NCBI GenBank assembly: GCA_031271905.1
Contig: JAISUT010000032.1
Location: 13,887-77,886 of the forward strand
Direction: 5' to 3'
DNA length: 64,000 nucleotides
Origin: Acidobacteriota bacterium
GTDB taxonomy: Bacteria > Acidobacteriota > UBA6911
A program made the position numbers and the translations under genes. Below are positions 245 through 50,164 of this stretch, one piece after another. Under the pieces are notes generated by a model that worked only from the letters and a program-made list of their open reading frames with translations, had not been told where the DNA came from and searched no databases. Within the stretch, counting starts at the first letter, position 1. Each line of letters begins with the position of its first letter.

Positions 245-364
245 GGGAGCCTATAAAACCTCGCAGGCAAGGCGTCGCCGCAGGTCGAAAAGCGGGGTTC
301 GCCGAGGCGAATGGGCATTTTCGACCAAGGCGCGACGCGGCGCCGGGGTTTTCAGAGGCTCCCC
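245..364 (-). repeat. MITE/REP-like palindromic intergenic element, long form, reverse orientation (copy A)
   Basis: cctataaaacctcgcagGcaaggcg...ggggttttcagagg; about 120 bp; matches the other nine copies; sits between a stop codon and the next gene start. Confidence 0.85.
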
Positions 365-372
365 GGCGTCGT

Positions 373-1965
373 TTGCCGCCGGTTGTCGCAGGGGCGCATG
401 GGGGGCGTGGCGGGATGTTGAGCCTGGGGGAGTTGCAACGCGCGGCGCGTCTGGCGGCGGCGCTTCTTGAGGGGGCGCGCCTGAAACGCATCGACCAGCC
501 GGAGCCGTGCGCCTTGGTGTTCACCTTCGATCCCGGTTCGGGCAAGGCGTCGGGCCGCTTCCCGCTGCTGGTCTCCTGCCGCCCGGGATACGCCCGCATC
601 TGCCTCGCGCAACAGCCCGTGGCGCAGGCGTCCGATGCGCCCTCATCCTCTTTCCACCAGCGCCTGCGCGCCAACTGGGCGGGCAGCCGCCTGCGCGGCA
701 TCGGCGCCGCAGACGGCGACCGGAGCGTGACATTGTCCCTGGAGTCGCGCGAAGGTGCGTGCAAGGTCGTGTTCTCCATCATGGGGGCGGGCGGGGCGCG
801 CAGCAACATCTACCTGTTGGACGGGGCGGGGCGCCTGCTCCACGCCCTGCGCCCGCTTGGGGAGACGCGCAAGGAACTCGCCGTCGGCGAGGCGTGGATG
901 CCTCCGCAGGGCGGGGCGCCGTCCGCAGGGGGGGATCGGTGGGCGACGACCCCCGACGCGGAATACCTCCGCGAGGTCGCAAGGCACTATCGGGCGGCGG
1001 AGAGGCGCGGGGACGCGGAAGACCTCGCCCGGCGCATCCTGCAGGCGCTCAAAAAGGAACACGCCTTCTTAGACCGCAAGCGGCTCAACCTGCAGGAAGA
1101 CCTCGGCAGGGCGCGGCAGGCGGAGACCGACCGCCGGCGCGGGGAGCTCCTGAAAAACGTGCTCCACCTGGTGAAGCCGGGCGACGGCGAGGTCGAGGCG
1201 GTGGACTATGCGTCGGGGGAGCGGGTCGCGATCCCGCTCGACGCCCGGCTTTCGCCCGTGGAAAACCTGGAGTCCTATTTCGCCCGCTATCAGAAGGAGC
1301 AGCGCGGGGAGCGGCGCATCTTGGAGCAGTTGCGGGATGTGGACGCCTCGCGCCTGGCATTGGACGCGCTCCGGGAAAAGACGGAGGCGGCGCTGGGGCT
1401 GGAGCCCCCCGACCTCGGCGCGCTGGGCGAGGTCGCGGCGTCCCCGGCGGTGCGGCGCAGCCTGAGGCAACCCCCGCCCGCGCAAAAGCCCCCCTCCGCG
1501 CCGGGCGGGGCTTCTCCCGCCCGCGCCGCCCATGTCGCGGGCGGGGCGGGGAAGAAGGATCTGCCCGCCAAGCTGCGCCCCAAGCGCTACCGCACGGAGG
1601 AGGGGTTGGAGGTCTGGGTGGGGCGCAACGACGAGGGGAACGACTATCTGACGACGCGCCTCGCACGCGGGAACGACCTGTTCCTCCACTTGGAGGGCTA
1701 TCCGGGCAGCCACGTCATCCTGCGCACGGAGGGGCGCGCCGACCCGTCGCCCAAGGCGCTCGTGGACGCCTGCGAGCTGGCCGTGCATTACTCCAAGATG
1801 AAAAACGCCGGAAGCGCCGACGTGCATGTCGCGCCGGTCAAGGACGTCAAAAAGCCCAAAGGGGCGAAGCCGGGCCTGGTCTACGTTCGCGGCGGCAGGA
1901 GCGTCCGCCTGAAGCGCGACCCCAAGCGGCTGGAGAGGCTGCTGGCGTCGCGCCTGGACGATTGA
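373..1965 (+). CDS. NFACT-family protein (FbpA/RqcH-like ribosome quality-control homolog)
   Basis: N-terminal NFACT-N-like pattern (LGELQRAARLAAALLEGARLKRIDQPEP...) and a C-terminal NFACT-R/DUF814 signature (VWVGRNDEGNDYLTTRLARGNDLFLHLEGYPGSHVIL); start could be downstream (GTG or the Met near 415). Confidence 0.7.
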   Translation: MPPVVAGAHGGRGGMLSLGELQRAARLAAALLEGARLKRIDQPEPCALVFTFDPGSGKASGRFPLLVSCRPGYARICLAQQPVAQASDAPSSSFHQRLRANWAGSRLRGIGAADGDRSVTLSLESREGACKVVFSIMGAGGARSNIYLLDGAGRLLHALRPLGETRKELAVGEAWMPPQGGAPSAGGDRWATTPDAEYLREVARHYRAAERRGDAEDLARRILQALKKEHAFLDRKRLNLQEDLGRARQAETDRRRGELLKNVLHLVKPGDGEVEAVDYASGERVAIPLDARLSPVENLESYFARYQKEQRGERRILEQLRDVDASRLALDALREKTEAALGLEPPDLGALGEVAASPAVRRSLRQPPPAQKPPSAPGGASPARAAHVAGGAGKKDLPAKLRPKRYRTEEGLEVWVGRNDEGNDYLTTRLARGNDLFLHLEGYPGSHVILRTEGRADPSPKALVDACELAVHYSKMKNAGSADVHVAPVKDVKKPKGAKPGLVYVRGGRSVRLKRDPKRLERLLASRLDD

Positions 1966-2001
1966 CCCCGCCGGATCCGGGACGCGCCCCGTCGCGCCGG
2001 G

Positions 2002-2916
2002 TCAGGGGTGCTGCCGCCAGTGCGCCGGGACGGAGTTCTCGCTGGCGAAGCGCTCCAGCTTGTCGTAGAGCTTTTCCGCCTCCGAATATTGGTGTCGCGC
2101 CAACTTTTTGCGCTGTTCAAAACCGGCGCCGGTTTTCGCACCGTTTTCGTTCTCGATCAGGAACCGGCGCCAAGCTTCCTTCATGCCCGCGATCCTGTGG
2201 AAGTTGGAGCGCCACCAGATCTCGTCGTGCCCGCCGGGCATGTTCTGCTGCATCGGCAGCTCGTCGAACACCAGGACGTTGCGGCTGGTGTCGATGCTGA
2301 TGCGATAGCCTGCGAGGAAGTCCATCCCGACCAGCCCTTCGAAGTGCTCCGAGTTTATCGGGGTGATGGTGGCGGGGAGGAATTCCGCATAGGCGGCCCC
2401 GACCTGTATCGAATCGACCGCCGTGAGCGTGGCGGGCACCTCGCCGCCGACGCCCCCCGTCGTGACGATGAGCCCACCCTCCTCCGGGTCTATCAACCCC
2501 AGCCGTTCGGCGAGGTGCGGCGCGATGACCAGGCCCGGGGCGCCGGTGTCCAGCAGCAACGTGGTCGTGACCGATTTGTTGATGGTGACCGGGATTATGA
2601 TGCGCCGCGCCATGCCTTCATAGCCCGCATAGGGGACTTCGAAATGCCTCAACCCGTCTTCGGAAAACGTCACGGCGACGCCAGGGTCGGCAAGGTCCGC
2701 CAAGAGGGACGCGCGCGTGTCGGTGGAAAGCGCCCTGGAGCGGGTCTCGTCGCGGTATTCGGGCGGGATGCTCGAAGGGTCTTCCGTTATGTGGATGGTG
2801 CCTTCCGCGTCCTTCCAGCGGTAGAGGTCTCCGAAAGAGAAGGGTTGAAACAACGCCAGCGCGATTGCCGCCGCAAGCATGGCGCGGAGTGTAAAACTCA
2901 CCGTCCGGATTCCCAT
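2002..2916 (-). CDS. Secreted retropepsin-like (clan AA) aspartic protease
   Basis: Signal-peptide-like N-terminus; LLLDTGA aspartyl protease motif; domain context of TIGR02281-like proteins. Confidence 0.6.
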   Translation of the reverse strand: MGIRTVSFTLRAMLAAAIALALFQPFSFGDLYRWKDAEGTIHITEDPSSIPPEYRDETRSRALSTDTRASLLADLADPGVAVTFSEDGLRHFEVPYAGYEGMARRIIIPVTINKSVTTTLLLDTGAPGLVIAPHLAERLGLIDPEEGGLIVTTGGVGGEVPATLTAVDSIQVGAAYAEFLPATITPINSEHFEGLVGMDFLAGYRISIDTSRNVLVFDELPMQQNMPGGHDEIWWRSNFHRIAGMKEAWRRFLIENENGAKTGAGFEQRKKLARHQYSEAEKLYDKLERFASENSVPAHWRQHP

Positions 2917-3157: not shown

Positions 3158-4453
3158 ATGAGGTATCGAGTTCCCAAGGTGGTGTTTCTCGTTGTTTTCG
3201 CAACGGCGGCGACGGTCGCGATGGCGGAGGACAAGTGGGTCGCGACATGGGCGGCTTCGCCCCAGGCGGCGTCTTTCGGCTTCGCCCCGTCCAAGCCGGC
3301 GGCGGGGGCACCCAAGCCGGCACCCGCCCCGGACGCCGCGGCCAAACCGGCGGCGAAGGAGGTCGCCTCGTTTTTCGCCGTCCCCGGTCCGCTTGACGAC
3401 CAGACCGTGCGCCAGGTGGTGCGGGTGAGCGTCGGCGGCAAGAGCCTCCGCGTGAAGGTCTCCAACGCCCATGGCGCCATCCCCCTGGTCGTCGGCGCGG
3501 CGCGCGTCGCCCTGCGCGACAAGGGTTCGGCGATCAAGCCGGGCACAGACCACGCGCTGACGTTTGGCGGCAAGGCGTCGTTTTCGATCCCCCCGGGCGC
3601 GCTGGCGGTCAGCGACCCGGTGGCGCTGGCCGTCGAGCCGCTCGCGGATCTCGCCATCAGCCTGTTCGTCACCGGCGAAGAGCCGTCGCCCACGGTGCAT
3701 CTGACGGGGCTGCACACCACCTACGTCACCAAGGCGGGGGACTTCACCAAGGCGGCGGAGCTTTCGGACGTGACGACGCTCCAGGCGTGGTACTGGATTG
3801 CGGAGGTGGACGTGCTCGCCCCCGCCGATGCGGCGACGATCGTGGCGTTCGGCGACTCCATCACCGACGGCGCGACCTCCACGCCCGACAAGGATCAGAG
3901 CTGGCCGAGCCAACTGGCCGTCCGTCTGGCTGCGAACAAGGAGACCGCCCACGTCGGGATCGTGAACCACGGGATCTCGGGGAACCAGCTCTTGAGCGAC
4001 GGCGCGGGCTATTCCGCGCTGGCGCGCTTCGACCGCGACGTGCTCGCCACGCCGGGGGTGAAGTGGCTGGTGGTCCTGGAGGGGATCAACGACATCGGGA
4101 TGTCCTCCATGATGGGGGGCGAGGTCGTCAGCGCCGACGCGATCATCGGGGCGCAAAGGCAGCTCATCGACCGGGCGCACCTGCACGGCGTCAAGGTCGT
4201 CGGGGCGACGCTCCTGCCCTACGGCGGCGCGAGCTATCACAGCGAGAAGGGGGAGGCGGTGCGGCAGGCGGTCAACCAATGGATCCGCACCGGCGGCGCG
4301 TATGACGCCGTGGTCGACTTCGACGCGAAGTTGCGCGACCCCCGGAACCCGGGCGAGATGGATCCGGCGTACTACATCAACGACCACCTGCATCCGAACG
4401 ACGCCGGATACAAGCTGATGGCGGACGCCTTCGACTTGGCGATCTTCAAATAG
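3158..4453 (+). CDS. Secreted SGNH/GDSL-family hydrolase (lipase/acylhydrolase-like)
   Basis: Signal peptide; GDSxT block IVAFGDSITDG; C-terminal DxxH-like block (NDHLHPN); GGAGG-type Shine-Dalgarno sequence upstream. Confidence 0.7.
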   Translation: MRYRVPKVVFLVVFATAATVAMAEDKWVATWAASPQAASFGFAPSKPAAGAPKPAPAPDAAAKPAAKEVASFFAVPGPLDDQTVRQVVRVSVGGKSLRVKVSNAHGAIPLVVGAARVALRDKGSAIKPGTDHALTFGGKASFSIPPGALAVSDPVALAVEPLADLAISLFVTGEEPSPTVHLTGLHTTYVTKAGDFTKAAELSDVTTLQAWYWIAEVDVLAPADAATIVAFGDSITDGATSTPDKDQSWPSQLAVRLAANKETAHVGIVNHGISGNQLLSDGAGYSALARFDRDVLATPGVKWLVVLEGINDIGMSSMMGGEVVSADAIIGAQRQLIDRAHLHGVKVVGATLLPYGGASYHSEKGEAVRQAVNQWIRTGGAYDAVVDFDAKLRDPRNPGEMDPAYYINDHLHPNDAGYKLMADAFDLAIFK

Positions 4454-4515
4454 GAGACCTCTAAAAACCCCGGACGCTGCGTTGCGCCTTGTCTGCGAGC
4501 TTTTTAGAGGTCCCC
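4453..4515 (+). repeat. MITE/REP-like element, short form (copy B)
   Basis: ggagaCCTCTAAAAACCCCGGACGCTGCGTTGCGCCTTGTCTGCGAGCTTTTTAGAGGtcccc; between convergent genes. Confidence 0.9.
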
Positions 4516-4646
4516 GATAGAGACGTCCGTTTGCGGCGCGGAGCGTCTTCGGGGTGCGACGGCTTGCCACCGCGCCCCGAAGTTTCTAAAGCGTTCGCGC
4601 CGCGGATGCCGCGAAAACGGCTGTTGGCGCGCCAGTTCGGCGCCGG

Positions 4647-5048
4647 CTAGAACTTCACGACGCGCGGCTCGGGGTTCGCGAACGAGGAGAAGGTCGCCGT
4701 CGCGTCCTTGAGGTACAGCACCTGCGTGTTGGGATCGTCCACGCTGTAGCGGTCCTTCAGCATCGGATAGGCTTCCAGCATGTGCGCCTTGGCTGCGGCG
4801 CTGTCGTCGTTGACCGCCAGCGCCGCGATGCGGACCCAGGTGCCGGTCGAGGGGTCGAACGCGCTGATCTCGACCTTGGGGTTCGCCGCCATCTGCTTGG
4901 AGACCGGCTTCGACTTGCCCGTCTGGATGTAGAGCTTGCCCTCGAACAGGTCGATGGTGCCGAAAGGACGCACGCGGGGCTGGTCCCCCTCCGCCGTCGC
5001 CAACCAGTATGTGCCGACCTTCTTCACAAAATCATAGACTTCCTGCAT
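4647..5048 (-). CDS. Pyridoxamine 5'-phosphate oxidase-like FMN-binding split-barrel protein
   Basis: 133 aa; pattern typical of the PNPOx/general-stress-protein-26 family (YWLATAEGDQPRVRPF...). Confidence 0.55.
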   Translation of the reverse strand: MQEVYDFVKKVGTYWLATAEGDQPRVRPFGTIDLFEGKLYIQTGKSKPVSKQMAANPKVEISAFDPSTGTWVRIAALAVNDDSAAAKAHMLEAYPMLKDRYSVDDPNTQVLYLKDATATFSSFANPEPRVVKF

Positions 5049-5082
5049 AATGCTTCCTCCTTGGGTTATTAAACAAGTTAAA

Positions 5083-5145
5083 GGGAACCTCTAAAAACCC
5101 CGGATACTGCGTTGCGCCTTGTCTGCGAGCTTTTTAGAGGCTCTC
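5083..5145 (+). repeat. MITE/REP-like element, short form (copy C)
   Basis: Near-identical to copy B (one substitution, gacg to gata); lies between the PNPOx-like gene start and the leuS stop. Confidence 0.9.
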
Positions 5146-5186
5146 GATAAAGATCCCCTGAAAACAAAAACCGTCCGCGCCCCCCC

Positions 5187-8030
<2,844 letters not shown>

Positions 8031-9984: not shown

Positions 9985-10803
9985 CTAACGGCGCGCTTTC
10001 GCCTTTTGGACCGGGGGGGGCGTCTTCTTCTTCGGCGGCGCCGGCCGCTTGGGCGAGGCCTTCGCCGGTTTTGCCGCCGTTTTGCCCGAAGGCGGCGCCG
10101 GCTTCGACGGCTTCCCCGACGCTTGCTTGCCCGCCGGTTTTGCCGCAGCCTGCTTGGCGACGGACGGCTTTGCCGCAACCGCCTTAGTTGCCGTCGCGTT
10201 GGCGGCGGCAGGTTTGGTTGTCGCAAGCTTGGCCGTCGCACCCGCCGCCTTTGGCTTCTTGGAGGCTTGGCTGGCGGCCTTGACCTCTTCCGGGTCGGGC
10301 TCTTGGACCTCCTTTTCCAAGCCTTGCAGGAGCATCCGCGCGCGCCGGATCAGGGTCGGATCACCCGCGAACGACTCTGTGATGCGCACGATGCGCGCCG
10401 CATGCGCCTTCACCAAGATGTAGAAGTCGAGCGACTGGTCGGTGACCGGCGAGCTTCGCAAAAGCCGGACGATGCGGGCGTAGATTTTCAAGATCACCGG
10501 CTCCGAGCTTTGCAGCGTCAGCTCGAAACTCTCCCGCAGGGAGACCGACTCCGTGTCGGCGGCGACCGGGCGATGCCCCTTGACCGCAGCCTCCAGCCGG
10601 TCGTCCGGCGCCTTTTTGAGCTGGTTCCAAAAGGAGTTCGGAAGTGATTTGAGCCCCTGGATTTGCAATGACACATCTTCCGACATGTCGCGCCACAGAG
10701 CCCTGATGACGCCGTTTTCCGCGAAGCGGTCCGCCAGCTTCTGGTACATCCGCTGCAGCGAGTGCTGATGCTCTGCTATGGATCCCGACAGGTTCATAAC
10801 CAA
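9985..10803 (-). CDS. Hypothetical protein with a C-terminal histone-H1-like Lys/Ala/Pro repeat tail (PhaF/AlgP-like)
   Basis: C-terminal ~90 aa of KPAAK/AKP repeats; globular N-terminal domain of unknown family. Confidence 0.5.
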   Translation of the reverse strand: MVMNLSGSIAEHQHSLQRMYQKLADRFAENGVIRALWRDMSEDVSLQIQGLKSLPNSFWNQLKKAPDDRLEAAVKGHRPVAADTESVSLRESFELTLQSSEPVILKIYARIVRLLRSSPVTDQSLDFYILVKAHAARIVRITESFAGDPTLIRRARMLLQGLEKEVQEPDPEEVKAASQASKKPKAAGATAKLATTKPAAANATATKAVAAKPSVAKQAAAKPAGKQASGKPSKPAPPSGKTAAKPAKASPKRPAPPKKKTPPPVQKAKARR

Positions 10804-13332: not shown

Positions 13333-13398
13333 GAGGGAACCTCTAACAACCCCGGACAACGGCGCCAGCGCCTTGCATGCGAGCTTTTTAGACGCCCC
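13333..13398 (+). repeat. MITE/REP-like element, short form, degenerate (copy D)
   Basis: gagggaaCCTCTAACAACCCCGGACAACGGCGCCAGCGCCTTGCATGCGAGCTTTTTAGACGccccc; between convergent genes. Confidence 0.75.
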
Positions 13399-15964: not shown

Positions 15965-16072
15965 GGGAGCCTCCAAAAACCCCGGACGCTGCGTTGCGCC
16001 TTGGTTGAAAACGCCCCTTCGCCTCAGCGAACTCCGCTTTTCGACCTGCGTCTGCGAGCTTTTTAGAGGCCC
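15965..16072 (+). repeat. MITE/REP-like element, long form (copy E)
   Basis: gggagCCTCCAAAAACCCCGGACGCTGCGTTGCGCCTTGGTTGAAAACGCC...TCTGCGAGCTTTTTAGAGGccc; lies between panE and panB inside the cluster. Confidence 0.9.
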
Positions 16073-18491: not shown

Positions 18492-18566
<75 letters not shown>

Positions 18567-18644
18567 ACGCACGGTCCGGCACAGCCCCGACACCATCCCC
18601 ACGGCGTCCCGATCGCCGATAACCACGCGGGAACTCCTGCAGGG

Positions 18645-18710
18645 GGGACCTCTAAAAACCCCGGACGCTGCGTTGCACCCTTGATCAAAAACGCCCGTTT
18701 GCCTTGCGCC
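18645..18710 (+). repeat. MITE/REP-like element, truncated long form (left half only, copy F)
   Basis: ggggggaCCTCTAAAAACCCCGGACGCTGCGTTGCACCCTTGATCAAAAACGCCCGTTTGCC; no right terminal repeat. Confidence 0.75.
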
Positions 18711-18941
18711 AATGATCGCGTTAAATCGTTCGCTCCAATTCCCCGAAGTGCATCGCACCATAAGTTTTCAGTTGACAGCAGGCGGTGCCGTAAAAGCGGC
18801 GTGTTTGATTTCCTTGCCTTCAATCAAAAGCCGAGGCCAGAGGGGGAAATCACATGCGGCGAAGCCGCCTCCTGCAGAGGCTGACCACCGCCAACCGCCA
18901 ACTGTCAACTAAAGCAACCCGCCGTTTGGCGCGCCGACTTC

Positions 18942-19913
18942 TTACTCCCAGCCGGTCTGGGAGTTGTACGGCGCCATGAAGCCCATCGCCTCGATCTCGT
19001 GGATCTGGCCGCCCCAGATCTTGTAGATGTGCATCGCGGGCAGGTCGAACGGGTCGAACTGCATCGAGGTCGTCTGGCTGGCGGGGTTGTTGAGCACCGG
19101 GTACTCCTTCTCCTTCATGTCGTGGCGGAAGTGGGAGAAGCCCATCGCCAAGCCCGTCAACTCGTCGGCGACCTCCACGCGGCGGTGGTCGATGGTGTCG
19201 ATGTACAGGAACGTCTGCGAGTCGAGCTGCGCCTTGCAGTCCAGCATGCCGAGCAGGCTCGGGGGCGGGGCGGCCACGCCGGGGATGCCGGCGCCGCCCA
19301 GCGACGGGCCGCCGTAGGGCGCCGTGCGCATGCCGTTCTCGCGCCGCTCACAGTCGGAGGCGAACGGGGCGAGGCCGCCGTTGTTCAGGTCGAGCGCGTC
19401 ATAGTACGACTTGGCGATGTGTACGAGCCGGCCGCGCGAGTCACGGTACTCATACGGGATCTCCATCGGGATGGCCGGGCGCACCTTCTGCATGTTGTCC
19501 AGCGCCCCGCCGGTCGGCTCGGCCAGCATGTGCTCGGCCTCGACGATCTTGCCGCCGACCACCTTCAGCCGGAAGCCGACCTGGGTCGGCTTGTTGTCCG
19601 ACTGGATCATGAACATGCCGCCCACCTGTTGCGAGTATGTGTCGGGGATCGTGATCTTGAACTCGGTCGGGCCGGACGTGGTGGTCTTCCACAGCCCCTC
19701 GCCGGGCTTGATGCGCTTGGCGTTCTCGACCATTTTGACGTTGGCGTCGAGCGGGACTTTGTTGGGGGCGTGCGCGGCAAGCGCCGCGAAATAGTCGTCC
19801 GCCAGTTTGATGAGCGCCGCCCTGTCCAGGTCTGCGGCATGGGCGCCACTTGCCGCCACGAACAGCATGGCGGCGCACAACAACGCGGTGAATCTCGTTC
19901 GTTTCATAGTCAT
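18942..19913 (-). CDS. Hypothetical secreted protein
   Basis: Signal peptide (MKRTRFTALLCAAMLFVAASGAHA); no recognisable motifs; start chosen at MTMKRTRF. Confidence 0.45.
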   Translation of the reverse strand: MTMKRTRFTALLCAAMLFVAASGAHAADLDRAALIKLADDYFAALAAHAPNKVPLDANVKMVENAKRIKPGEGLWKTTTSGPTEFKITIPDTYSQQVGGMFMIQSDNKPTQVGFRLKVVGGKIVEAEHMLAEPTGGALDNMQKVRPAIPMEIPYEYRDSRGRLVHIAKSYYDALDLNNGGLAPFASDCERRENGMRTAPYGGPSLGGAGIPGVAAPPPSLLGMLDCKAQLDSQTFLYIDTIDHRRVEVADELTGLAMGFSHFRHDMKEKEYPVLNNPASQTTSMQFDPFDLPAMHIYKIWGGQIHEIEAMGFMAPYNSQTGWE

Positions 19914-20263
19914 CCTATCCTCGTAGAAAGCGCGCAGGGACGCCTCGACGATCACGCGGGGCGATCTTTGCGCGCACACCCAGCATCCAGTCATTATTCG
20001 AAAATCCGGGGGAGCCCCGGAATCCCAAACCGACAACGCACCGATTCTATCCCGACAATGCCCGCGGAAGCAAAGAAAATAGCGCACGGCGGGGGTGCCC
20101 CGCCGCATCGCAACCATTTGCAACCGTTATCGTTGTTTCCTATTGACCATCGTCGTCAATAAAGTACATGATATGTGCTTCATCCGCGCGGGAGGGGCGG
20201 CGGCGACGGAAGCCGCACGCGCCGGCGGCGGGTTCTCGACGAGGTCTGGGAAGCGGAACGAAC

Positions 20264-20926
20264 ATGATCCAGGACGCGCTCAAGCTGTCACTTCTGGTCG
20301 TAAGCGTCGCCACCGTCATCATCGCGCTGGCGGGGACGGCGTTGGGGTTCCTGCTCGCCAGGGGCCGCTTCTGGGGCAAGGAGCTTCTGGACGCCACGCT
20401 GACCCTGCCCATGGTGCTGCCGCCGACCGTGACCGGGTACTACCTGATCCTGCTTTTGGGGAGGCGCGGCTGGCTGGGCGCCCCCCTGTACGCGCTGACC
20501 GGGTGGTCGGTGACCTTCACCTGGATCGCCGCAGTCGTCGCCTCGACGGTCGTCGCCATCCCGTTGATGATAAAGTCCGCGCGCGCCGCGCTGGAAAGCG
20601 TGAACCCCGACTACGAGACGGCATCCCGCGTCATGGGCAAGGGAGAGTGGGAGACCTTCTTCCGCGTCACCCTGCCGCTGGCGGGGAAAGGCATCTTGGC
20701 GGGCGTCATCCTGAGCTTCGCGCGGGCGTTCGGGGAGTTCGGCGCGACCATGATGCTGGCGGGCAACATCCGGGGGAAGACGCAGACGATGCCGCTGGCC
20801 ATCTACGAGGCGATGGCGGCGGGGGAGGACGCGCAAGCCACCTGGCTGGCGCTCGTCCTGACAGGCATCTCCATCACAGTCGTCTACATCACCAACCGCC
20901 TCGCGCGCCCGGTCGGGGGGAGGTGA
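20264..20926 (+). CDS. modB: Molybdate ABC transporter permease
   Basis: ABC-2 permease EAA-like loop (ARAFGEFGATMMLAGN); polytopic; gene order with modC. Confidence 0.85.
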   Translation: MIQDALKLSLLVVSVATVIIALAGTALGFLLARGRFWGKELLDATLTLPMVLPPTVTGYYLILLLGRRGWLGAPLYALTGWSVTFTWIAAVVASTVVAIPLMIKSARAALESVNPDYETASRVMGKGEWETFFRVTLPLAGKGILAGVILSFARAFGEFGATMMLAGNIRGKTQTMPLAIYEAMAAGEDAQATWLALVLTGISITVVYITNRLARPVGGR

Positions 20927-20928
20927 CC

Positions 20929-22008
20929 ATGCTCGACGCGCGCATCAGGAAAAAGCTTGGCGGGGGCGACGCCCCCGTGCTGGACGTCCATGTCAAGGCG
21001 GCGGACGGCATCACCGTCCTTTTCGGCCCTTCCGGCGCCGGCAAGACCAGCATCCTGCGCGCGGTCGCGGGCATCCTGGTGCCGGACGAAGGGAGGATCG
21101 CCCTGGGCGAGACGGTGTTCTTCGACGCGTCGGCGAAGGTCAACATCCCCATACGGAGGCGCCGGGTCGGTTACGTGTTCCAAAACCACCTGTTGTTCCC
21201 CCACATGACGGCGGAGCAGAACGCCCTTTACGGCGCACGCGGCGATGCGCGCAAGAGCGCCTTGGAGCGGGTACGCGGGCTTTTCGCCATGATGGGCATC
21301 TCCAAGGTCGCCGCACGCCGCCCGCACGAGCTGTCGGGCGGGGAGCAGCAACGGGTCGCGCTGGCGCGGGCGCTCGCGACCGACCCGGCCATCATGCTCC
21401 TGGACGAGCCGCTCTCGGCGGTGGACGCGGCGACGCGCGGGCGCCTGACCGAAGAGATCGCGGAGATACAGCGCCAGGCCGGCGTCCCCTTCCTTTACGT
21501 CACCCACAACCACACGGAGGCGCTGCGGCTGGGGAAGGCGATGCTGGTCATCGACGAGGGAAGGGTCGCGCAGACGGGCGCCCCCGCGGAGATATTCAAC
21601 GCCCCGCGCACGGCTTCGGTCGCCCGCGTGGTCGGCGCGGAGAACATCTTCCACGGGCGGGTCTTGCGCCACCTGACGGACGAGGGCACCACCGTCGTCG
21701 ATATCGGCGGCTGCGCGGTTGAAACTTCCTACAACGGCATGGGCATCGGCAAAAGCGTCACCTTGGGCATCCGCTCGGAGGACGTCCTGGTCTCGCGCGA
21801 GCATGTCACGCAAACCAGCGCCCGGAACGTGCTGCGGGGCGAGGTGGTCAGCATATTCCGCGACATCGACCGGGCGGACCTGGTCGTCAACTGCGGCGTG
21901 GACTTCAAGGTCGGGGTCACGCCCGCCACCGTGCGCAACATGGAGCTGGCGGAGGGAAGCCGGGTGTTCCTCCTGGTCAAGGCCCGCGCCGTCCACGTCC
22001 TCGCCTGA
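20929..22008 (+). CDS. modC: Molybdate ABC transporter ATP-binding protein with a C-terminal TOBE domain
   Basis: Walker A (GPSGAGKTS); ABC signature (LSGGEQQRVALARAL); Walker B (LLDEPLSAVD); TOBE-like C-terminus. Confidence 0.85.
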   Translation: MLDARIRKKLGGGDAPVLDVHVKAADGITVLFGPSGAGKTSILRAVAGILVPDEGRIALGETVFFDASAKVNIPIRRRRVGYVFQNHLLFPHMTAEQNALYGARGDARKSALERVRGLFAMMGISKVAARRPHELSGGEQQRVALARALATDPAIMLLDEPLSAVDAATRGRLTEEIAEIQRQAGVPFLYVTHNHTEALRLGKAMLVIDEGRVAQTGAPAEIFNAPRTASVARVVGAENIFHGRVLRHLTDEGTTVVDIGGCAVETSYNGMGIGKSVTLGIRSEDVLVSREHVTQTSARNVLRGEVVSIFRDIDRADLVVNCGVDFKVGVTPATVRNMELAEGSRVFLLVKARAVHVLA

Positions 22009-23987: not shown

Positions 23988-23988
23988 C

Positions 23989-28480: not shown

Positions 28481-28522
28481 GGGAGGACGGCGCGACGCGC
28501 CACCATTCTTAAGGAGGAGGCA

Positions 28523-29752
28523 TTGGCGGACGGAACGGAAGACCGCACGCGCGACGAAAGCCGGGTTCAGGAGCCGGCGGGCGGGGACGAGGACGAGATA
28601 AGCATCTTGGATCTGCTCCTCGTGCTGGCGGGCGGGAAAAAGCTCATCATCGGGCTGACGCTCGCGTGCGGCGTCTTGGCGGGCGTCCTCGCCTTCATCA
28701 CGCCGAAATCGTACACGGCCTCGGCGTTGATCATGCCGCCGCAGCAGGGGACTTCGTCGGCAGCCGCCATGTTGGGGCAGTTGGGGGGCTTGGCAGGCGG
28801 CCTGCTCGGCGGCGCGGGCGTGTCCACCCCGGCGGACGCCTATATCGGCATCCTGAAAAGCCGGACGGTGTCGGACGAGGTGATCGGGAAGTTCAAATTG
28901 CAGGAGCTGTATAAGACCAAGACCCAGATGGCGACCCGGGGCGCATTGGCGCAGAGAACCAACTTCGAGACCACGGATGCGGGCTTGATACAGATCTCCT
29001 TCACGGACAGGACGCCGGAACGGGCGGCAGAGGTCGCCAACGCCTACGTGGAAATCCTGCGAGAGCAGAACAGCCGTCTGGCGCTGACGGAATCTTCGCA
29101 ACGCAGGTTGTTTTTCGAACGCCAGCTCGAGGAGGAGAAAGACAAGCTGGCGGCGGCGGAAGGCGAGCTCTTGCAGTTCCAGATGGAACAGGGGATCGTA
29201 CAGGCCGACAGCCAGATGGACGCCGTCTTTACGACGATGGTGGAGTTGCGAGCCCAGATCACGAAGGACGAAGCAGACTTGGAAAGCCTGCTGGCGGGCG
29301 CCACGCCGCAAAACCCGGAAGTGTTGCGGCAGCAGGCGTCTTTGCAGGCAAAGCGCGCGCGGCTCCGGCAGTTGGAGTCCAAGAACGCATCCCGCAGCAA
29401 AGACGACCCGTTGTTGCCGACCTCGATGATGCCCGAGGCGGGCATGGAATACGCCCGACGGCTCCGCGACGTCAAATACCGGGAGTCGCTGTACGAACTG
29501 CTCGCCAAGCAATACGAGGCGGCGCGAATGGACGAGGCGCAGGAGTCGCCGGTGATCCAGGTGGTGGACGTCGCCGTCCCCCCGGACTGGAAATCCGCAC
29601 CCAAAAGGAGTTTATATGTCTTGGCAGGATTGTTGTTCGGTTGTATGATGGGCGTGTTTGTCGTGTTTTTACGGCATGCTTTAAATGATCCCGCCCATGC
29701 GGGGCAGATCGCGGAACTGAAGGCGCTCCTGTGGTTCAAGGCGAAGAAATGA
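28523..29752 (+). CDS. Wzz/GumC-like polysaccharide chain-length determinant (no kinase domain)
   Basis: N-terminal and C-terminal TM segments flanking a coiled-coil periplasmic region; ISILDLLLVLAGGKKLIIGLTLAC Wzz-like N-terminus. Confidence 0.7.
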   Translation: MADGTEDRTRDESRVQEPAGGDEDEISILDLLLVLAGGKKLIIGLTLACGVLAGVLAFITPKSYTASALIMPPQQGTSSAAAMLGQLGGLAGGLLGGAGVSTPADAYIGILKSRTVSDEVIGKFKLQELYKTKTQMATRGALAQRTNFETTDAGLIQISFTDRTPERAAEVANAYVEILREQNSRLALTESSQRRLFFERQLEEEKDKLAAAEGELLQFQMEQGIVQADSQMDAVFTTMVELRAQITKDEADLESLLAGATPQNPEVLRQQASLQAKRARLRQLESKNASRSKDDPLLPTSMMPEAGMEYARRLRDVKYRESLYELLAKQYEAARMDEAQESPVIQVVDVAVPPDWKSAPKRSLYVLAGLLFGCMMGVFVVFLRHALNDPAHAGQIAELKALLWFKAKK

Positions 29753-29854
29753 GAAGATAGGCTGGGTCATAAGCTTCATTATCATGATGATGGAAGGTGT
29801 TTTGCACTCGCCGTCATCCGCTCGCTTTCGTATTTTTTATAGGATGTGTAGGGT

Positions 29855-31378
29855 ATGTGGTGGTTTTATCTGACATGCTTCGGCCTGGCGTTTGTCTGTT
29901 GTCTTCCGCTGGCTGCGACTGTTCGCCATTGGGGACGAAAGTTGCGGATATATGACATGCCTGACGCTCGGCATGTCAACAATCGGAGCATCCCCCGGTT
30001 GGGGGGGGTCGCCATCGCCGCAGCCAGCATCGTCATTTTAGGAGCCGTGTTCTTCGGCGACGACCTCTTTCAGTGGCGCCTGTTCCCCTCTGTGAACCAA
30101 TCGTTGTTGTTGCCGCTGCTGGGCGGCGCGACGAGCGTGTGGCTGCTGGGGTTGCTGGACGACGTCTGGCACCTGCGCGCGCGCTATAAGTTGCTGGTGC
30201 AGATCGCGATCGCCGTGTGCATGTATTCGGCGGGCTTGCAGGTCAATGCCATCCAGTTCCCCGTCTTGGGCGTCTGGGATTTGGGCGATTACGCCTTGCC
30301 GTTCACGGTGCTTTGGATAGTCGGGACGATGAACGCCATCAACTTCATCGACGGGGTGGACGGGCTCTGTTCCGGCGTGGCGTTGGGCGCGTTGCTGGGC
30401 ATACTCTCCTTCGCGTTCATTTTCAACAACCCTGCCGGGATGTCGATCTGTTACGTGCTGTTGGGGACGACGCTGGCGTTCTTCCTGTTTTTCAACGTCC
30501 CCCCAGCCTCGCTTTTCCTCGGGGATTCCGGGACGTACTTCCTAGGGTTCATGGTGGCGGCGCTGCCGGTGTTCATCGCATCCCAGCCCTCCGGCGACGC
30601 CGGTCTCCATATCTTCCATGCGCCGTTCGTCATGGTCGCCTTCGTCCCCACCATCGACGCCGGACTGGCGATCGTCCGGCGCATAATCATGGGCGTCCCG
30701 ATCTCGGCACCCGACCGGGGGCACCTTCACCACCGGTTGCTGGACAAGGGGTATACGCACAAAAAGACCGCAGCCGTCCTGTCGCTGTGCTCGCTGCTCC
30801 TCGTTGCATCCGGGATCGTCATGTTGCTCGGGAACGACTGGCAGGTGATGCTCGCCCTGCTGGCGGCGATGCTGGAAGTCTACGCACTGTTTCGCCTGTG
30901 CGCCATCAACTCCCTGCACGACCTCAAGCCGGTTCGCGGACTGAACAGCTCCAAGGCGATGGCGTTGCGGAAATACACTCCTTCGTTCCTGCACAACCTG
31001 TCCTTGGCGCCGAATTGGGCGCATGTGGGGAAGCTGCTGGACGAGTTCGTCCAAGACACGGAGATGCGCAAGGTGATCATCTCCTACTATGCGAGTTGCG
31101 ACAAAAGAGAGCGGGTGGTCTGGAGCTGGCATATGGAAAATCCCCGGTGCATGCGGCGGTCGTTGCGGCTGAACAAGACCTACGACGTGCTTTCTGGCGA
31201 CACCGGGGTGTACAAGTTCTATTTCTGCTGGGATTCGGAGCAAGACCGGGTGCAGAACGACACCGACGCGCTGCTTGAGGTGGTCGCGGAGGTCATCGGC
31301 AGGATCTGTCACGAAGTCGCCGTACCCGTGCATGTCGCCGTACCCATGCATGAAGAGGTCGAGTGCTACCAAGAGTAG
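29855..31378 (+). CDS. WecA/MraY-family polyprenyl-phosphate sugar-1-phosphate transferase (GT4) with a ~170-aa C-terminal soluble extension
   Basis: DDxxH block (LGLLDDVWHLR); polytopic region; a Cys-rich unknown C-terminal domain; lower local GC. Confidence 0.7.
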   Translation: MWWFYLTCFGLAFVCCLPLAATVRHWGRKLRIYDMPDARHVNNRSIPRLGGVAIAAASIVILGAVFFGDDLFQWRLFPSVNQSLLLPLLGGATSVWLLGLLDDVWHLRARYKLLVQIAIAVCMYSAGLQVNAIQFPVLGVWDLGDYALPFTVLWIVGTMNAINFIDGVDGLCSGVALGALLGILSFAFIFNNPAGMSICYVLLGTTLAFFLFFNVPPASLFLGDSGTYFLGFMVAALPVFIASQPSGDAGLHIFHAPFVMVAFVPTIDAGLAIVRRIIMGVPISAPDRGHLHHRLLDKGYTHKKTAAVLSLCSLLLVASGIVMLLGNDWQVMLALLAAMLEVYALFRLCAINSLHDLKPVRGLNSSKAMALRKYTPSFLHNLSLAPNWAHVGKLLDEFVQDTEMRKVIISYYASCDKRERVVWSWHMENPRCMRRSLRLNKTYDVLSGDTGVYKFYFCWDSEQDRVQNDTDALLEVVAEVIGRICHEVAVPVHVAVPMHEEVECYQE

Positions 31379-31514
31379 GAAAAGACTGCGGGCGCGGCTC
31401 GGCGCCTTCCCAATTTCTCCAAGGCGACGGGTGTTCGCAAAAAAGGGGGCGAATGTCCGCATCGCACCACAAGCCGCCAAGCCCTCGGCGCCATGCATCG
31501 ACATCAACCACAGC

Positions 31515-31632
31515 GAACCTCTAAAAACCCCGGATGCTGCGTTGCGCCTTGGTCGAGAATGCTCATTCGCCTCGGCGAACCCCGCTTTTCGACCTGCGGC
31601 GACGCCTTGTCTGCGAGCTTTCTAGGGGCGCC
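31515..31632 (+). repeat. MITE/REP-like element, long form (copy H)
   Basis: cgaaCCTCTAAAAACCCCGGATGCTGCGTTGCGCCTTGGTCGAGAATGCTCATTCGCCTCGGCGAACCCCGCTTTTCGACCTGCGGCGACGCCTTGTCTGCGAGCTTTCTAGGGG. Confidence 0.9.
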
Positions 31633-31678
31633 CCACAATGTGTTCGACTGACGGCTTGGCCTTCGCCGAGGTCGCGCC

Positions 31679-40836: not shown

Positions 40837-40956
40837 GGGAACCTCTAAAAACCCCGGACGCTGCGTTGCGCCTTGATCGAAAATGCTCATTTACCCCGGT
40901 AAACTCCGCTTTTCGACCTGCGGCAGACGCATTGTCTGCGAGCTTTTTAGAGGTTC
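40837..40956 (+). repeat. MITE/REP-like element, long form (copy I)
   Basis: gggaaCCTCTAAAAACCCCGGACGCTGCGTTGCGCCTTGATCGAAAATGCTCATTTACCCCGGTAAACTCCGCTTTTCGACCTGCGGCAGACGCATTGTCTGCGAGCTTTTTAGAGGttctc; lies between HlyD gene 3 and the permease. Confidence 0.9.
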
Positions 40957-41111
40957 TCATTAATCAGAACAATCGCAAGGCAGGTTCGGAAACCGACCCG
41001 CCACCCGCTCGGCGCGGGCGGTCGGCGGGGGCGGCACCCGCCGGAACGAAGCGCCGCCCCCGCCTTCTTCACGACTTCACGACAACCGCAAGGCGCGGCG
41101 CGCCATCCGCG

Positions 41112-45098: not shown

Positions 45099-46346
45099 TT
45101 AACCCCGATTTCGATTGTTGGAATTGCCGGCGTTGTTGAATTTCGGTTTCGGCCTGGGATCCGCCGGCATGGGCTGTTCGTTGAGCCACGCGCTCCAATC
45201 CGATTCGATCTGCGCAAAATTGTCGCCCAGCACGTCGGGCTGGACGAGATATTCGCGGGTCTCCTTCCCTTGGCGCACGTACTGGATGAGCTGCTTCATC
45301 CCGCCGGCGCCGAACTTCTGCAGGAAAAACTCGAAGAAGGTGATGGCCTGTCCGTCGAAAAGCAACCGGTCCTGCTCGGCCTTGGACAGGACGCGCGGGG
45401 GCATCCCCTCGCCGCCGGCCTTGGGCTTGGTCCGCGTCCCCTGCCCTCCGGCGCCGCCGCCGGGGAAGCCGCCGCCCGGCATCCCGCCGCCCATGCCGCC
45501 ACCGGGGAAGCCTCCGCCCATCTGCCCCATGCCGCCGCCGGGGAAGCCTCCGCCCATCTCGCCCGCTCCGCCGCCGTCGGAGCCGCCGGAGCCGCCCTGC
45601 TGGTCGGAGGAGGTGCTGACGAAAGGCCGGGACATGCCGATGACATCTTCAATGGAGAAGGCTTGGTCGAGGTTCGCGCGCAGGTACCGGATCGCCTCCG
45701 TGTCGCCGCTGGCGTAGGCGGCGATGCCGACGTCCAGCCAGTCCGGCAGGGGGCTCTTGACCACATCCGTGACGCGGCTGGAGCGGTAGCGGAAATCCGC
45801 GCCGCCCAGCATCGACTGCAGCACGGCGAAAGCGATGTCGCGCGCCATCTCGCCGGCCGCCTGCTGCTCGGCGCCCGACGCCATGTCGCGCGGCGGGTTG
45901 CTCATCCGGCGGCGCATCTCCTCCGGCATGTTGTCGCCGATGCGCGAGCGGATGCGCGCCATGGTCTCCTGCATCCGCACCTCCGGCGTGACCGAGATCA
46001 GCACCCAACTATACCCTCGCTTGAGCACCACCGGCTCGTAGAGGGAATCCTTCTGCGCCAGGTTCGAGCAGATGAAGATCGCGCCCTTGGGCAGGTCTTC
46101 GTCGAACAGCCCCTTGAGCTTGGCCACGGCTTCCGCGGCGGCCTTCTCATAGGGGGCGATCACCTGCCGGCTGGAGGCGAAGAAGTCCACGCCGGGGACG
46201 ACGTTGTGGAACGTGTTGAAGTTCTTGAAGCTGACGGCCTGGGCGTGCGCACAGTCCGCGCCTGACAGGGCGGTCAGCGCGACCAGCGGCGCGACCAGCA
46301 ACCAGCCCAAGGATAGGATCCTGCTTGTTCGTGTCATTCTCAACAT
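45099..46346 (-). CDS. Secreted hypothetical protein with an internal Gly-rich tandem repeat (GGFPGGGMG)
   Basis: Signal peptide at MLRMTRTSRILSLGWLLVAPLVALTALS; about 60-aa Gly-rich repeat encoded by ~27-bp DNA tandem repeats; first gene of the exporter cluster. Confidence 0.5.
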   Translation of the reverse strand: MLRMTRTSRILSLGWLLVAPLVALTALSGADCAHAQAVSFKNFNTFHNVVPGVDFFASSRQVIAPYEKAAAEAVAKLKGLFDEDLPKGAIFICSNLAQKDSLYEPVVLKRGYSWVLISVTPEVRMQETMARIRSRIGDNMPEEMRRRMSNPPRDMASGAEQQAAGEMARDIAFAVLQSMLGGADFRYRSSRVTDVVKSPLPDWLDVGIAAYASGDTEAIRYLRANLDQAFSIEDVIGMSRPFVSTSSDQQGGSGGSDGGGAGEMGGGFPGGGMGQMGGGFPGGGMGGGMPGGGFPGGGAGGQGTRTKPKAGGEGMPPRVLSKAEQDRLLFDGQAITFFEFFLQKFGAGGMKQLIQYVRQGKETREYLVQPDVLGDNFAQIESDWSAWLNEQPMPADPRPKPKFNNAGNSNNRNRG

Positions 46347-46627
46347 GCGCGCGCTCCGTCCCCCGATGAAAAAAACCGCCACGGCCGCCCCGCTTCCCAA
46401 CGACCGGGCGCACACGCCCATCGCCCATCGCCCATGGGCGGCCATGGGCAGGTTCCCAGTTCGTTTTACGCTGGTTAACTACGTCCCGGGTGCGCGGCTT
46501 GTTACATCTTTAAACTTTAAACAAACGCCGGCGGCGGGCGGCCCCGCGTCGCGCCATGGGGAGGCGCGCAGGCGCGGCAAGCACGCATCGGCGACCGGCG
46601 ACGCGACGCCGAAACGCGACGCCGCGA

Positions 46628-49124: not shown

Positions 49125-49209
49125 CCGCCGCGACCCGCGCCCCCGCATCCAAGGTTTTCGCAATTTGCCCCTGCATTTCCCCCTCCCTTGCGGGCATAAT
49201 AGCTTCCTT

Positions 49210-50031
49210 ATGAAAGTTCCCGTCGCGCTCACCATCGCAGGCTCCGACCCCTCGGGAGGCGCCGGCGTCCAGGCCGACCTGAAGACCTTCCACCAACGCG
49301 GCGTGTACGGCGCATCGGCGGTCACCTTGTTGACCGTGCAAAACACGCAGCGGGTCGATGCCGTCCAAGTGCTCGCCCCCGAACTCGTGGAGGCGCAGGT
49401 GCGGGCGGTGATCGAGGACATCCCCCCCGCCGCCGCCAAGACCGGCGCGCTCGGGGACGAGCGGGTGGTCCGGCTGGTCGCGGAGTTGGCGGAGGGGTTC
49501 GACTTCCCGCTGGTGGTGGATCCGGTCATGGTCTCCAAGCACGGCCGCGCCCTCCTGACGGCACCGGCGAGACGCGCGCTCGGGGAGTTGCTGCTGCCCC
49601 GGGCGCACCTGGTGACGCCGAACCTGCCGGAGGCGGAGGAGCTGGCGGGGATGCCGGTGCGCGACCTGGACGGGATGAAGGCGGCGGCGGTGGCGATCGT
49701 GGCTCGCGGCGCGCGCGCCGCGCTGGTCAAGGGCGGGCACCTGGAAGGCGGCGGTCGCCCCGTGGACGTGCTCTACTCCGAGGCGACGGGGTTGATGTGC
49801 CTGGACGCGCCGCGCATCGAGACGCGGCACACGCATGGCACCGGGTGCACCTATTCCGCCTGCATCACCGCCGAACTCGCCAAGGGCGCGCCGCTGGCGG
49901 ACGCCGTGACGCTGGCGAAGGAGTTCATCACACGGGCAGTCGAGTCCGCCCCCGGCCTGGGGCGGGGTTCCGGGCCCGTCAACCATTTCGCCGACGTGCC
50001 GGACGCCCGATCCGGCCGCCGTCGCGGATGA
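49210..50031 (+). CDS. thiD: Hydroxymethylpyrimidine/phosphomethylpyrimidine kinase
   Basis: ALTIAGSDPSGGAGVQADLKTF N-terminus; ribokinase-like fold patterns. Confidence 0.85.
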   Translation: MKVPVALTIAGSDPSGGAGVQADLKTFHQRGVYGASAVTLLTVQNTQRVDAVQVLAPELVEAQVRAVIEDIPPAAAKTGALGDERVVRLVAELAEGFDFPLVVDPVMVSKHGRALLTAPARRALGELLLPRAHLVTPNLPEAEELAGMPVRDLDGMKAAAVAIVARGARAALVKGGHLEGGGRPVDVLYSEATGLMCLDAPRIETRHTHGTGCTYSACITAELAKGAPLADAVTLAKEFITRAVESAPGLGRGSGPVNHFADVPDARSGRRRG

Positions 50032-50043
50032 CATCGTATGGGA

Positions 50044-50164
50044 AGGGAGCCTCTGAAAACCTCGCAGACAAGGCGTCGCCGCAGGTCGAAAAGCGGAGTT
50101 CGCCGAGGCGAATGAGCATTTTCGACCAAGGCGCGACGCGGCGTCCGGGGTTTTCAGAGGTTCC
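50044..50164 (-). repeat. MITE/REP-like element, long form, reverse orientation (copy J)
   Basis: gggagCCTCTGAAAACCTCGCAGACAAGGCG...GGGGTTTTCAGAGGttccc; lies between thiD and the LOG gene. Confidence 0.9.

Follow-up and report, generated by a model that had tools for sequence, protein, structure and literature searches.

Short palindromic repeats that lie between genes have been described in several groups of bacteria. For the ERIC elements, an effect on the stability of the upstream mRNA, dependent on orientation and exerted via an RNase E site, is reported (De Gregorio et al. 2005, in the account given by PMC3184786), and for the REP sequences both stabilising and attenuating roles on mRNA have been proposed (PMC3733652, PMC3116915). 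Judged by their proposed mode of action, ERIC and the Correia/NEMIS elements of Neisseria would be the closest known counterparts of the repeat family described here. This family was found in a 64-kb stretch of DNA (the window, 64,000 nucleotides in full) from an uncultured Acidobacteriota genome of 66% GC, on a contig of 78,418 nt whose proteins are filed at NCBI as MDR17276xx and which is also present in JGI. The repeats are likely to represent a foldback MITE (a miniature transposable element with inverted repeats), a non-coding derivative, 63-122 nt long, of a DNA transposon; it would be transcribed together with its neighbours as an RNA hairpin and would modulate the flanking genes.

An earlier note on this DNA had listed ten copies, and all of them were recovered by a repeat finder and MAFFT alignment, with coordinates within 1-3 nt and the same orientations. 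A profile search with nhmmer added an eleventh copy, a degenerate short form at 25934-25995. The 24-mer of the earlier note, CCTCTAAAAACCCCGGACGCTGCG, gave 8 matches in the window at up to 3 mismatches, and none in 100 dinucleotide-preserving shuffles. The eleven copies are mutually 85-96% identical, have 20-bp inverted ends in common and amount to about one per 6 kb (11 in 64 kb). Short forms of about 63 nt (4453, 5083, 13333 and 23925), long forms of 108-122 nt (245, 15965, 31515, 40837 and 50044), one truncated copy (18645) and the degenerate short form (25934) were distinguished. The gene map, which was built from calls based on GC content at third codon positions and carries Pfam and NCBI (source) names, places all eleven copies between genes, as had been claimed for the first ten. 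Six lie in spacers between co-directional genes, namely hemE|NFACT, leuS|PNPOx, panB|panE, amidase|ddl, HlyD|MacB-FtsX and thiD|LOG; the last five agree with the operon neighbours named before. Three are located between convergent genes, one follows tRNA-Asn (18492-18566, plus strand), which is the sole RNA gene of the window according to the Rfam search, and the eleventh occupies a divergent spacer. The statement that every copy is found within about 40 bp of a stop codon or between genes was correct as to the position between genes, while the distance to the stop fails for copies 40837 (153 nt) and 18645. The copies are as follows, the strand given being the one with the ...GGGGTTTTCAGAGGCTCCCC 3' arm.

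245 to 364, plus strand: long-form copy of 120 nt, 1 nt 3' of the hemE stop (243) and preceding a gene of the NFACT family; the strand given is the mRNA-sense one.
4453 to 4515, minus strand: short-form copy of 63 nt in a convergent pair, overlapping the last base of the TAG stop of an SGNH hydrolase gene (plus), with the PNPOx stop (minus) 131 nt away.
5083 to 5145, minus strand: short-form copy of 63 nt in the leuS|PNPOx spacer (both genes minus), 41 nt past the leuS stop and 34 nt ahead of the PNPOx ATG.
13333 to 13398, minus strand: short-form copy, more diverged, between convergent genes, 1 nt past the coaX stop (13400, minus) and 26 nt past the stop of a Gate-domain gene (plus).
15965 to 16072, minus strand: long-form copy of 108 nt with 12 nt missing, 22 nt past the panB stop, with the panE ATG (15964) following immediately on the 3' end of the copy, GGAGGCTCCC.
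18644 to 18710, minus strand: truncated copy, 78 nt past the tRNA-Asn gene, in which model positions 61-120, the 3' half of a long form, are all that is left.
23925 to 23987, minus strand: short-form copy that fills the entire amidase|ddl spacer, with the amidase stop (TGA) 1 nt upstream and GGAGG 7 nt ahead of the ATG at 23922.
25934 to 25995, plus strand: eleventh copy, degenerate short form, GGCACATTTAAAAAAACCGTAGGCGAAACGCTGGTGTTGCGTCCGGGCTTTTTGCAAGTGCC, in the divergent spacer between an amidase and a wza-like gene, 28 nt ahead of the wza-like ATG at 26024.
31513 to 31634, minus strand: long-form copy between convergent genes, 44 nt past the stop of a hypothetical gene (31679, minus) and 134 nt past the stop of a glycosyltransferase gene (plus), with TGTG(G) at both junctions.
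40837 to 40958, minus strand: long-form copy in the HlyD|MacB-FtsX spacer (both genes minus), 153 nt past the HlyD stop and 24 nt ahead of the permease ATG.
50044 to 50165, plus strand: long-form copy, the best folding one (-80.6 kcal/mol), in the thiD|LOG spacer (both genes plus), 12 nt past the thiD stop and 16 nt ahead of the LOG ATG.

The ATG at 23922 belongs to a ddl call of 365 amino acids, and the NCBI call begins 18 codons further in. The short copies 4453 and 5083 form direct repeats on either side of the PNPOx-family gene (4647-5048; regions compared 4445-4523 and 5075-5153). Beyond one element end they also have 7 of 8 bases in common (TCTYTATC on the sense strand), which suggests either a local duplication or a slightly longer element end.

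The terminal inverted repeats measure 19-22 bp (GGSAACCTCYRAAAAC(C)... and ...GGGGTTTTYRGAGGTTSCC, the 3' end elsewhere being written ...GTTTTYRGAGGTTSCC), so that the ends are about 20 bp long and not 10-15 bp as first read. The long form makes up one long interrupted hairpin: its two ends pair into the basal helix (about 20 bp), above which come a middle helix and then an apical hairpin. An extra internal block with nested palindromes had been ascribed to the long form, and the inner hairpin module was indeed restricted to it. These parts are given below for a representative copy.

50045 to 50064, plus strand: 5' terminal inverted repeat, GGGAGCCTCTGAAAACCTCG.
50085 to 50126, plus strand: inner hairpin module, present in the long form only, GTCGAAAAGCGGAGTTCGCC-GAG-GCGAATGAGCATTTTCGAC; CAAGGCG direct repeats border the segment absent from the short form.
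50146 to 50165, plus strand: 3' terminal inverted repeat, CGGGGTTTTCAGAGGTTCCC, containing the Shine-Dalgarno-like AGAGG.

The short form lacks the 58-nt segment between the two CAAGGCG direct repeats. A two-base marker, GCAACGCAG or GCGACGCGG, is common to particular long and short copies, which suggests that the short form arose from the long one by deletion between the repeats at least twice independently.

Each strand carries stop codons in two of its three frames, and one frame per strand stays open through the element. The spurious peptides of the open reading frame track had been explained as translations of the element, and the family does account for them. A protein search with all six translated frames gave one weak match only, the tail of a PyrR protein. 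That protein led to L004, a JGI contig of 37.5 kb that comes from this organism or one very close to it. Three long forms occur there in 20.6 kb, in the pyrR|pyrB|pyrC region. A full-length copy (10560-10685) lies on this contig in the last codons of pyrR, with TCAA on both sides, and the JGI gene call P0133 thus ends in about 30 residues that are encoded by the element. With 63-122 nt and no coding capacity, the copies are within the size expected of a MITE (below about 500 bp).

An origin of the copies as assembly or binning artefacts, or as parts of a protein-coding family, can practically be dismissed on these and the following data. The open frames and the one public gene call that reads into a copy are what such an explanation can draw on. 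Independent Logan unitigs of run SRR14710912 correspond to window positions 18650-31544 at 100% identity and are broken exactly inside three copies, with L001 (window 18650-23986) and L002 (23958-31544) terminating within element copies, as it is expected for a multi-copy repeat. The JGI, NCBI and Logan assemblies agree base for base. Since independent unitigs reproduce the window sequence, the copies are not assembly errors. Covarying stems were also found in copies from many unrelated data sets, and the stop codons in two of three frames, together with the weak PyrR-tail match as the only outcome of the translated search, argue against a coding family.

The mobility of the family was evaluated at the junctions of every element with both ends recognisable (n = 67, all loci), the flanking bases being compared and either flank being shifted as control. 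Identical 4-mers were present at both junctions in 20 of the 67 elements, against 0-2 in the shifted controls, and identical 5-mers in one. The duplicated 4-mers are A/T-rich (TTTA, TTAA, TTAT, ATAA, TAAA, TTCA, TGTA). Intact duplications are present at the copies of the Bacteroidota bin Gsp477_bin28 (JAIRYD01). A minimal form of 41 nt, which consists of the two ends alone, is also flanked by duplications. Comparison with relatives, which had been proposed as a check on presence/absence polymorphism and target-site duplications, revealed occupied and empty sites. The panB|panE spacer measures 7-12 nt and is empty in eight relatives, and it is filled in L006 and in the window. The L006 copy has ATAC on its left and ATGC on its right, at the panE start codon, and the window copy abuts the same ATG. 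In the closest relative, L003 (82-95% nucleotide identity), this spacer holds no copy and consists of an unrelated 56 nt containing two Ns. In the L003 spacer (2849-2900) the NN is bordered by a duplicated GGGGCTCGGCGGCA, probably a scaffolding overlap, so that the empty state is not fully certain in that genome.

Other palindromic sequences were observed at the same place. In the apex of the L006 copy (5148-5288) a further small hairpin, TAGGGGCGAATAATTATTCGCCCCTA, is nested. In L008 (about 2060-2195) and L062 (about 500-640) the spacer is taken up by a foldback element of another kind, unrelated to the family, about 135 nt long and with ends CATGGGAGCGCGGGCGTCCCCGCCGGCGTGTA, and yet another hairpin was seen there in L020. 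Palindromic insertions thus seem to favour the panB|panE spacer as a hot spot.

The family was followed beyond this organism by its 3' end. The 3' 20-mer CGGGGTTTTCAGAGGTTCCC with three degenerate positions served as the probe that retrieved elements from other phyla; the scan with this end, CGGGGTTTTYRGAGGTTSCC, gave at least 74 loci, where about 9 are expected by chance (own calculation from the collection size). Many bins hold 3-11 loci each among the matches listed. The multi-locus bins are labelled as several Treponema, Zodletone Spirochaetales, Oscillospiraceae, Eubacteriales, Acidobacteriota and 'Tannerella', and many of the wider set derive from termite guts. The near-identical 20-mer end thus occurs in several phyla, in genomes with GC contents from 37% to 67%. 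The two ends remain the same and the interiors are lineage-specific: Treponema has forms of 41 nt (just the ends) and of 143 nt, the Zodletone bin one of about 78 nt and Oscillospiraceae one of about 150 nt. Acidobacteriota loci with a PanB 74-82% identical contain a sibling long-form family with many compensatory (paired) differences. The Acidobacteriota-type long form was also present in the 'Tannerella' bin and in three low-GC Bacteroidota contigs. The 'Tannerella' contigs are genuinely Bacteroidota, as evidenced by a match of 1353 bits to the Bacteroidota model of EF-G2.

An exact-pattern scan for the interior CCCCGGAYRCYGCGTYGCGCCTTG gave no match in the genome_contigs or metagenome_contigs collections, which do not contain the home genome and sample 3300042602. 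The L004 copies would have matched the interior pattern, and this indicates that the home sample lies outside the scanned collections. A scan of viral contigs for the ends gave two solitary matches, about the chance level, and BLAST of three element versions against 72,556 plasmid records gave chance matches only.

Two further observations concern the loci of other lineages. In three Bacteroidota-type contigs of 37-38% GC (L103 6879-7001, L114 4061-4183 and L131 5750-5872) there is one long form each, at the same conserved locus and with conserved flanks, which looks like vertical inheritance of a single old insertion; one of these contigs, with 38% GC, is filed under a Bifidobacterium breve bin and was probably mis-binned. 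In the Zodletone Spirochaetales bin (L083, L086, L095, L121, L133, L141, L143, L146 and L148) the repeat extends about 40 nt beyond the GGTTGCC end (CAGGATAAATCGATAGTTTT...), so that the hairpin is part of a somewhat larger repeat. The loci have no open reading frame in common downstream of it. Since the extension is merely about 40 nt, this repeat is not an insertion sequence.

The small size, the terminal inverted repeats, the 4-bp duplications, the dispersed copies and the empty and filled sites together agree with the definition of a MITE (Delihas 2011, PMC3184786). The first of the three earlier proposals, a non-autonomous mobile element, is supported in this way, with the duplications seen in the wider family. 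These data bear on an alternative in which the repeats were never mobile. They would be cis-regulatory hairpins that evolved in the host, as intrinsic terminators working in both directions or as a structured regulatory RNA motif, and would have spread by descent and local duplication only. The hairpin is followed by T5 on both strands, many copies lie between convergent genes or just past stops, and the covariation is strong with conserved unpaired motifs, all of which would suit such hairpins. Convergence cannot yield a near-identical 20-mer in several phyla of 37-67% GC, and target-site duplications, orthologous sites that are empty or filled among relatives, a copy within the end of pyrR, a 41-nt ends-only form with duplications of its own and the lack of any matching Rfam family all speak against such hairpins. 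We regard this alternative as very improbable.

The fold was then considered by strand; the element is described here on the folding strand, ending ...GGGGTTTTYAGAGGTTCCC. Six of the eight sequences folded were far better than their shuffles (z -4.4 to -9.3), and the two most diverged short copies, 13333 and 23925, were not (z +0.1 and -1.7 on the strand tested). The covariation alignment comprised 25 long forms from four lineages, as a mixed alignment of long and short forms had given a meaningless RNAalifold structure. In this alignment 96.3% of the cells were paired, against 35-50% when the partners were slid. Twelve pairs were altered on both sides, and none of 500 shuffles attained the observed values of pairing and compensation. 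Two such compensatory changes are found in the apical stem of copy 40837 (TTTACC...GGTAAA). The non-Watson-Crick cells comprised 103 G·U and 15 A·C, and in the four lineage consensuses the figures were 14 and 2. The conserved G·U pairs would be mismatches on the opposite strand. Of the 12 full copies of this genome, 9 have the more stable fold on the sense strand, by 3-14 kcal/mol, and in the other three the strands are within about 1 kcal/mol. The stronger conservation of the 3' arm across phyla is partly due to ascertainment, as that arm was the scan pattern, and was not relied on.

The folding strand proved to be the mRNA-sense strand in 10 of the 11 copies between co-directional genes (window, L004 and relatives), the exception being L130. 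The consensus written in the earlier note is the antisense of the strand transcribed with the flanking genes, and in the window it is antisense to the genes in all six same-strand spacers. The two copies recorded as reverse are exactly those between plus-strand genes. Inside the window the copies thus turn round wherever the genes do, which makes an effect of the replication strand less likely. An intrinsic terminator has a G+C-rich stem with a U-tract directly after it; here the sense-strand stem finishes in ...CCGGGG, and U5 comes next. A terminator consensus scan found only small sub-hairpins in 5 of the 11 copies, and the window total of terminator-like sites was near chance. GGAGG or AGAGG is found shortly upstream of the start codon at panE, ddl, the L006 panE, L015 and L054. 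At the panE and ddl copies of the window the AGAGG of the 3' arm has become GGAGG, 5-7 nt before the ATG, and is still paired via G·U.

A function as free-standing small-RNA genes, each copy being a transcription unit carried on a mobile element, had been the third proposal. A stable, conserved hairpin with a U-run does resemble the terminator of a small RNA. No promoter-like site was evident in or beside the copies, some of them fill stop-to-start spacers of 63-130 nt that leave no room for a promoter, and the orientation match with the flanking genes (10 of 11) fits co-transcription; the proposal was abandoned and appears most unlikely.

The strand asymmetry is also what a REP/REPIN-type system would lead one to expect, in which a domesticated Y1 (RAYT/TIRYT) transposase moves palindromic units in the form of single-stranded DNA and the strand used sets their orientation. 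Such a mechanism predicts a strand-specific tolerance of G·T/G·U. The units here are palindromes in intergenic DNA, located for the most part downstream of genes and at very high density, and Acidobacteria are reported to carry a distinct group of Y1 transposases associated with terminal inverted repeats, one of them with a repeated family of such repeats (PMC3733652). Y1 transposition leaves no duplications and targets a fixed tetra- or pentanucleotide, in contrast to the variable 4-bp duplications of 20 of 67 elements. The units start with GGG or GGC, which are paired, instead of an unpaired GTAG/CGTC head, and do not match the TIRYT motif GGGGWSAS. The window and the 134 neighbouring open reading frames scanned contain no Y1 transposase, and the orientation tracks the local gene direction within one 64-kb stretch and not a single replication direction. 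A REP/REPIN origin is consequently considered unlikely. The REP-like element presumed earlier is thus supported as to the mode of action, given the strand-specific fold and an orientation that follows transcription, and not supported as to family membership, given the missing GTAG/CGTC head, the duplications and the absence of any RAYT in what was scanned.

Other known repeats were compared and rejected. CRISPR repeats were discarded as there is no array. Integron attC sites have RYYYAAC/GTTRRRY cores and follow gene cassettes beside an integrase; such cores are missing from the ends, the neighbours here are housekeeping genes (such as leuS, panB, ddl and pyrB), and the 4-bp duplications of the family are variable. 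The Tn3-derived TIMEs have a 5-bp duplication and a 38-bp repeat (GGGG...ACGYTAAG), against one of 67 elements with identical 5-mers and 20 of 67 with identical 4-mers, and ends of the IS200/IS605 type are incompatible with the variable 4-bp duplications. The terminal repeat presumably has a weak resemblance to Tn21-type ends. A resemblance to Correia elements, which we had assumed, was not borne out by BLAST against the plasmid records. In the Rfam 15 search the window matched only tRNA at the gathering threshold, and 7 element loci from other phyla gave no match at E values up to 1. In the full-text literature the end sequences matched unrelated primers only, and no paper on MITEs in termite-gut Treponema was found. 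On sequence comparison the family appears to be new, being unrelated to ERIC or Correia/NEMIS elements and having neither an Rfam match nor a publication that holds its ends.

Taken as a co-transcribed MITE, the element could act as follows. A transposase of the DDE type, supplied in trans, would recognise the ends and choose A/T-rich 4-mers as insertion sites. With a genomic GC content of 66%, such 4-mers would cluster mainly at stop and start codons, and the copies would thereby come to hug the gene ends. The 4-bp duplication and the GG ends would fit the IS5 group, IS701 or ISAzo13. Once inserted, the element would be read through as part of the flanking mRNA. The basal helix of about 20 bp and the U5 may serve as a barrier to 3' exonucleases and as a partial terminator, and the helix is possibly a substrate for RNase III, as with Correia elements. 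Through the hairpin the upstream and downstream cistrons would no longer be tied to each other in amount. In addition, the 3' arm might supply an AGAGG/GGAGG ribosome-binding site, held masked in the stem, in replacement of the site displaced by the insertion. Stop codons lie 1-12 nt upstream of the hairpin at hemE, coaX, amidase and thiD; it is conceivable, if speculative, that a terminating ribosome opens the stem and couples the translation of the two genes.

Several points weigh against the reading as a co-transcribed MITE. None of the six in-window copies detected by the junction test (245, 4453, 5083, 23925, 40837 and 50044) has an exact 4-bp duplication, three of them matching in 3 of 4 bases; copy 31515 shows TGTG at both junctions by inspection, if the 5' end is shifted by one G. 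Such inexact junctions fit older insertions, and mobility in this genome rests on family membership, empty sites and the similarity of the copies. Neither the window nor the loci fetched, about 1.1 Mb in all, yielded a transposase or an autonomous element with these ends, nor did the hunt for an autonomous partner, which covered end pairs 0.25-6 kb apart, the open reading frames beside solitary ends and a Pfam scan of 134 neighbouring ones, reveal a transposase. The taxon names of the other hosts are those of the record titles, 'Tannerella' alone having been checked independently. The U-tract has merely 5 nt and a simple terminator scan scores the copies as weak. The orientation tally comprises only 11 cases, and the starts of some genes, such as ddl, are uncertain. 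A plain cut-and-paste element of double-stranded DNA does not predict strand asymmetry, which we attribute by inference to selection on the predicted RNA. A transcription-linked C-to-T bias could contribute to the surplus of G·U, although probably not to the extent of a sevenfold excess.

Acidobacteriota and Bacteroidota long forms have a common covarying hairpin with G·U pairs conserved on one strand, and the unpaired motifs CAAGGC, AAAAGCGGAGUUYRCC/GGYRAAUGAGCAUUUU and GYAACGCAG. These three features raise the possibility, which we hold as a tentative one and rather doubtful, that the long form is a portable, structured, cis-acting RNA module carried between phyla by a transposon vehicle. 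If so, the element would spread a ready-made post-transcriptional device, which could terminate or stabilise transcripts, offer a site for processing or bring in a masked ribosome-binding site. Another possibility is that propagation of the element depends on a single-stranded (RNA) stage.

The family accounts for assembly breaks and for at least one wrongly extended gene (the pyrR tail). Masking is advisable in Acidobacteriota and termite-gut genome bins, and short-read assemblies of this organism will fragment at the repeats. About one copy per 6 kb would rank among the densest mini-transposon loads known; if this density held throughout a genome of typical size, several hundred copies would be present, many of them within essential operons for pantothenate, pyrimidine and cell-wall synthesis. 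That bacteria labelled as Acidobacteriota, Bacteroidota, Spirochaetota and Clostridia have a 20-bp end in common suggests that a so far unrecognised transposase is widespread, and also that genes flow within gut communities. With its fold conserved on one strand, the family lends itself well to testing whether a mobile element is selected for its action as RNA. For specialists, the interest lies in one terminal repeat and one structured interior across phyla, in the selection on a one-strand fold and in the density within essential operons.

Apart from the family, the window contains tandem-like DNA repeats at 22492-22659 and 45448-45561, which result from Gly/Pro-rich or Gly-rich low-complexity protein stretches (GGPGGPGGGPGFGGPGGG, GGGFPGGGMG). 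The respective proteins, at 22153-22701 (plus strand, no Pfam match) and 45099-46445 (minus strand, weak Pfam match), are both secreted or membrane proteins.

Compared with the known systems, the family agrees with REP/REPIN sequences and their RAYTs (PMC3733652, PMC3116915) in being palindromic, intergenic, mostly located after genes, able to form larger hairpins and dense. It differs from them in that REP units have 20-40 nt, an unpaired GTAG/CGTC head and no target duplication, and flank a Y1 gene (PMC3733652), none of which was seen here. The pyrR copy of L004, with its tail of about 30 residues encoded by the element, resembles the in-frame insertions of Rickettsia palindromic elements; unlike with those, the pyrR case is single and all eleven window copies are intergenic. 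The ERIC/IRU (RU-1) elements of enterobacteria and Yersinia are imperfect palindromes as well, of about 120-127 nt and located in transcribed intergenic regions. They have no sequence similarity to the present family, in which the orientation itself is biased (10 of 11) and the RNA effect is an inferred one.

The Correia/NEMIS elements are likewise foldback MITEs, of 100-155 bp, very abundant and located beside or between genes (PMC3733652, PMC3184786). They are co-transcribed, have a long perfect basal helix that makes a plausible RNase III substrate, and can supply expression signals to their neighbours. Their sequence is unrelated, as no match was obtained in the plasmid collection, which also holds Neisseria chromosomes; Correia elements, known from a single genus, produce duplications of TA, whereas the present family duplicates 4 bp. 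With bacterial MITEs in general (PMC3184786), the family has in common the small non-coding unit, the terminal inverted repeats, the flanking duplications and the many intergenic copies, and also the long RNA stem-loop, often at gene 3' ends and probably co-transcribed. It stands apart from them in that one terminal repeat spans families with unrelated interiors in several phyla, and in that one strand alone keeps the fold.

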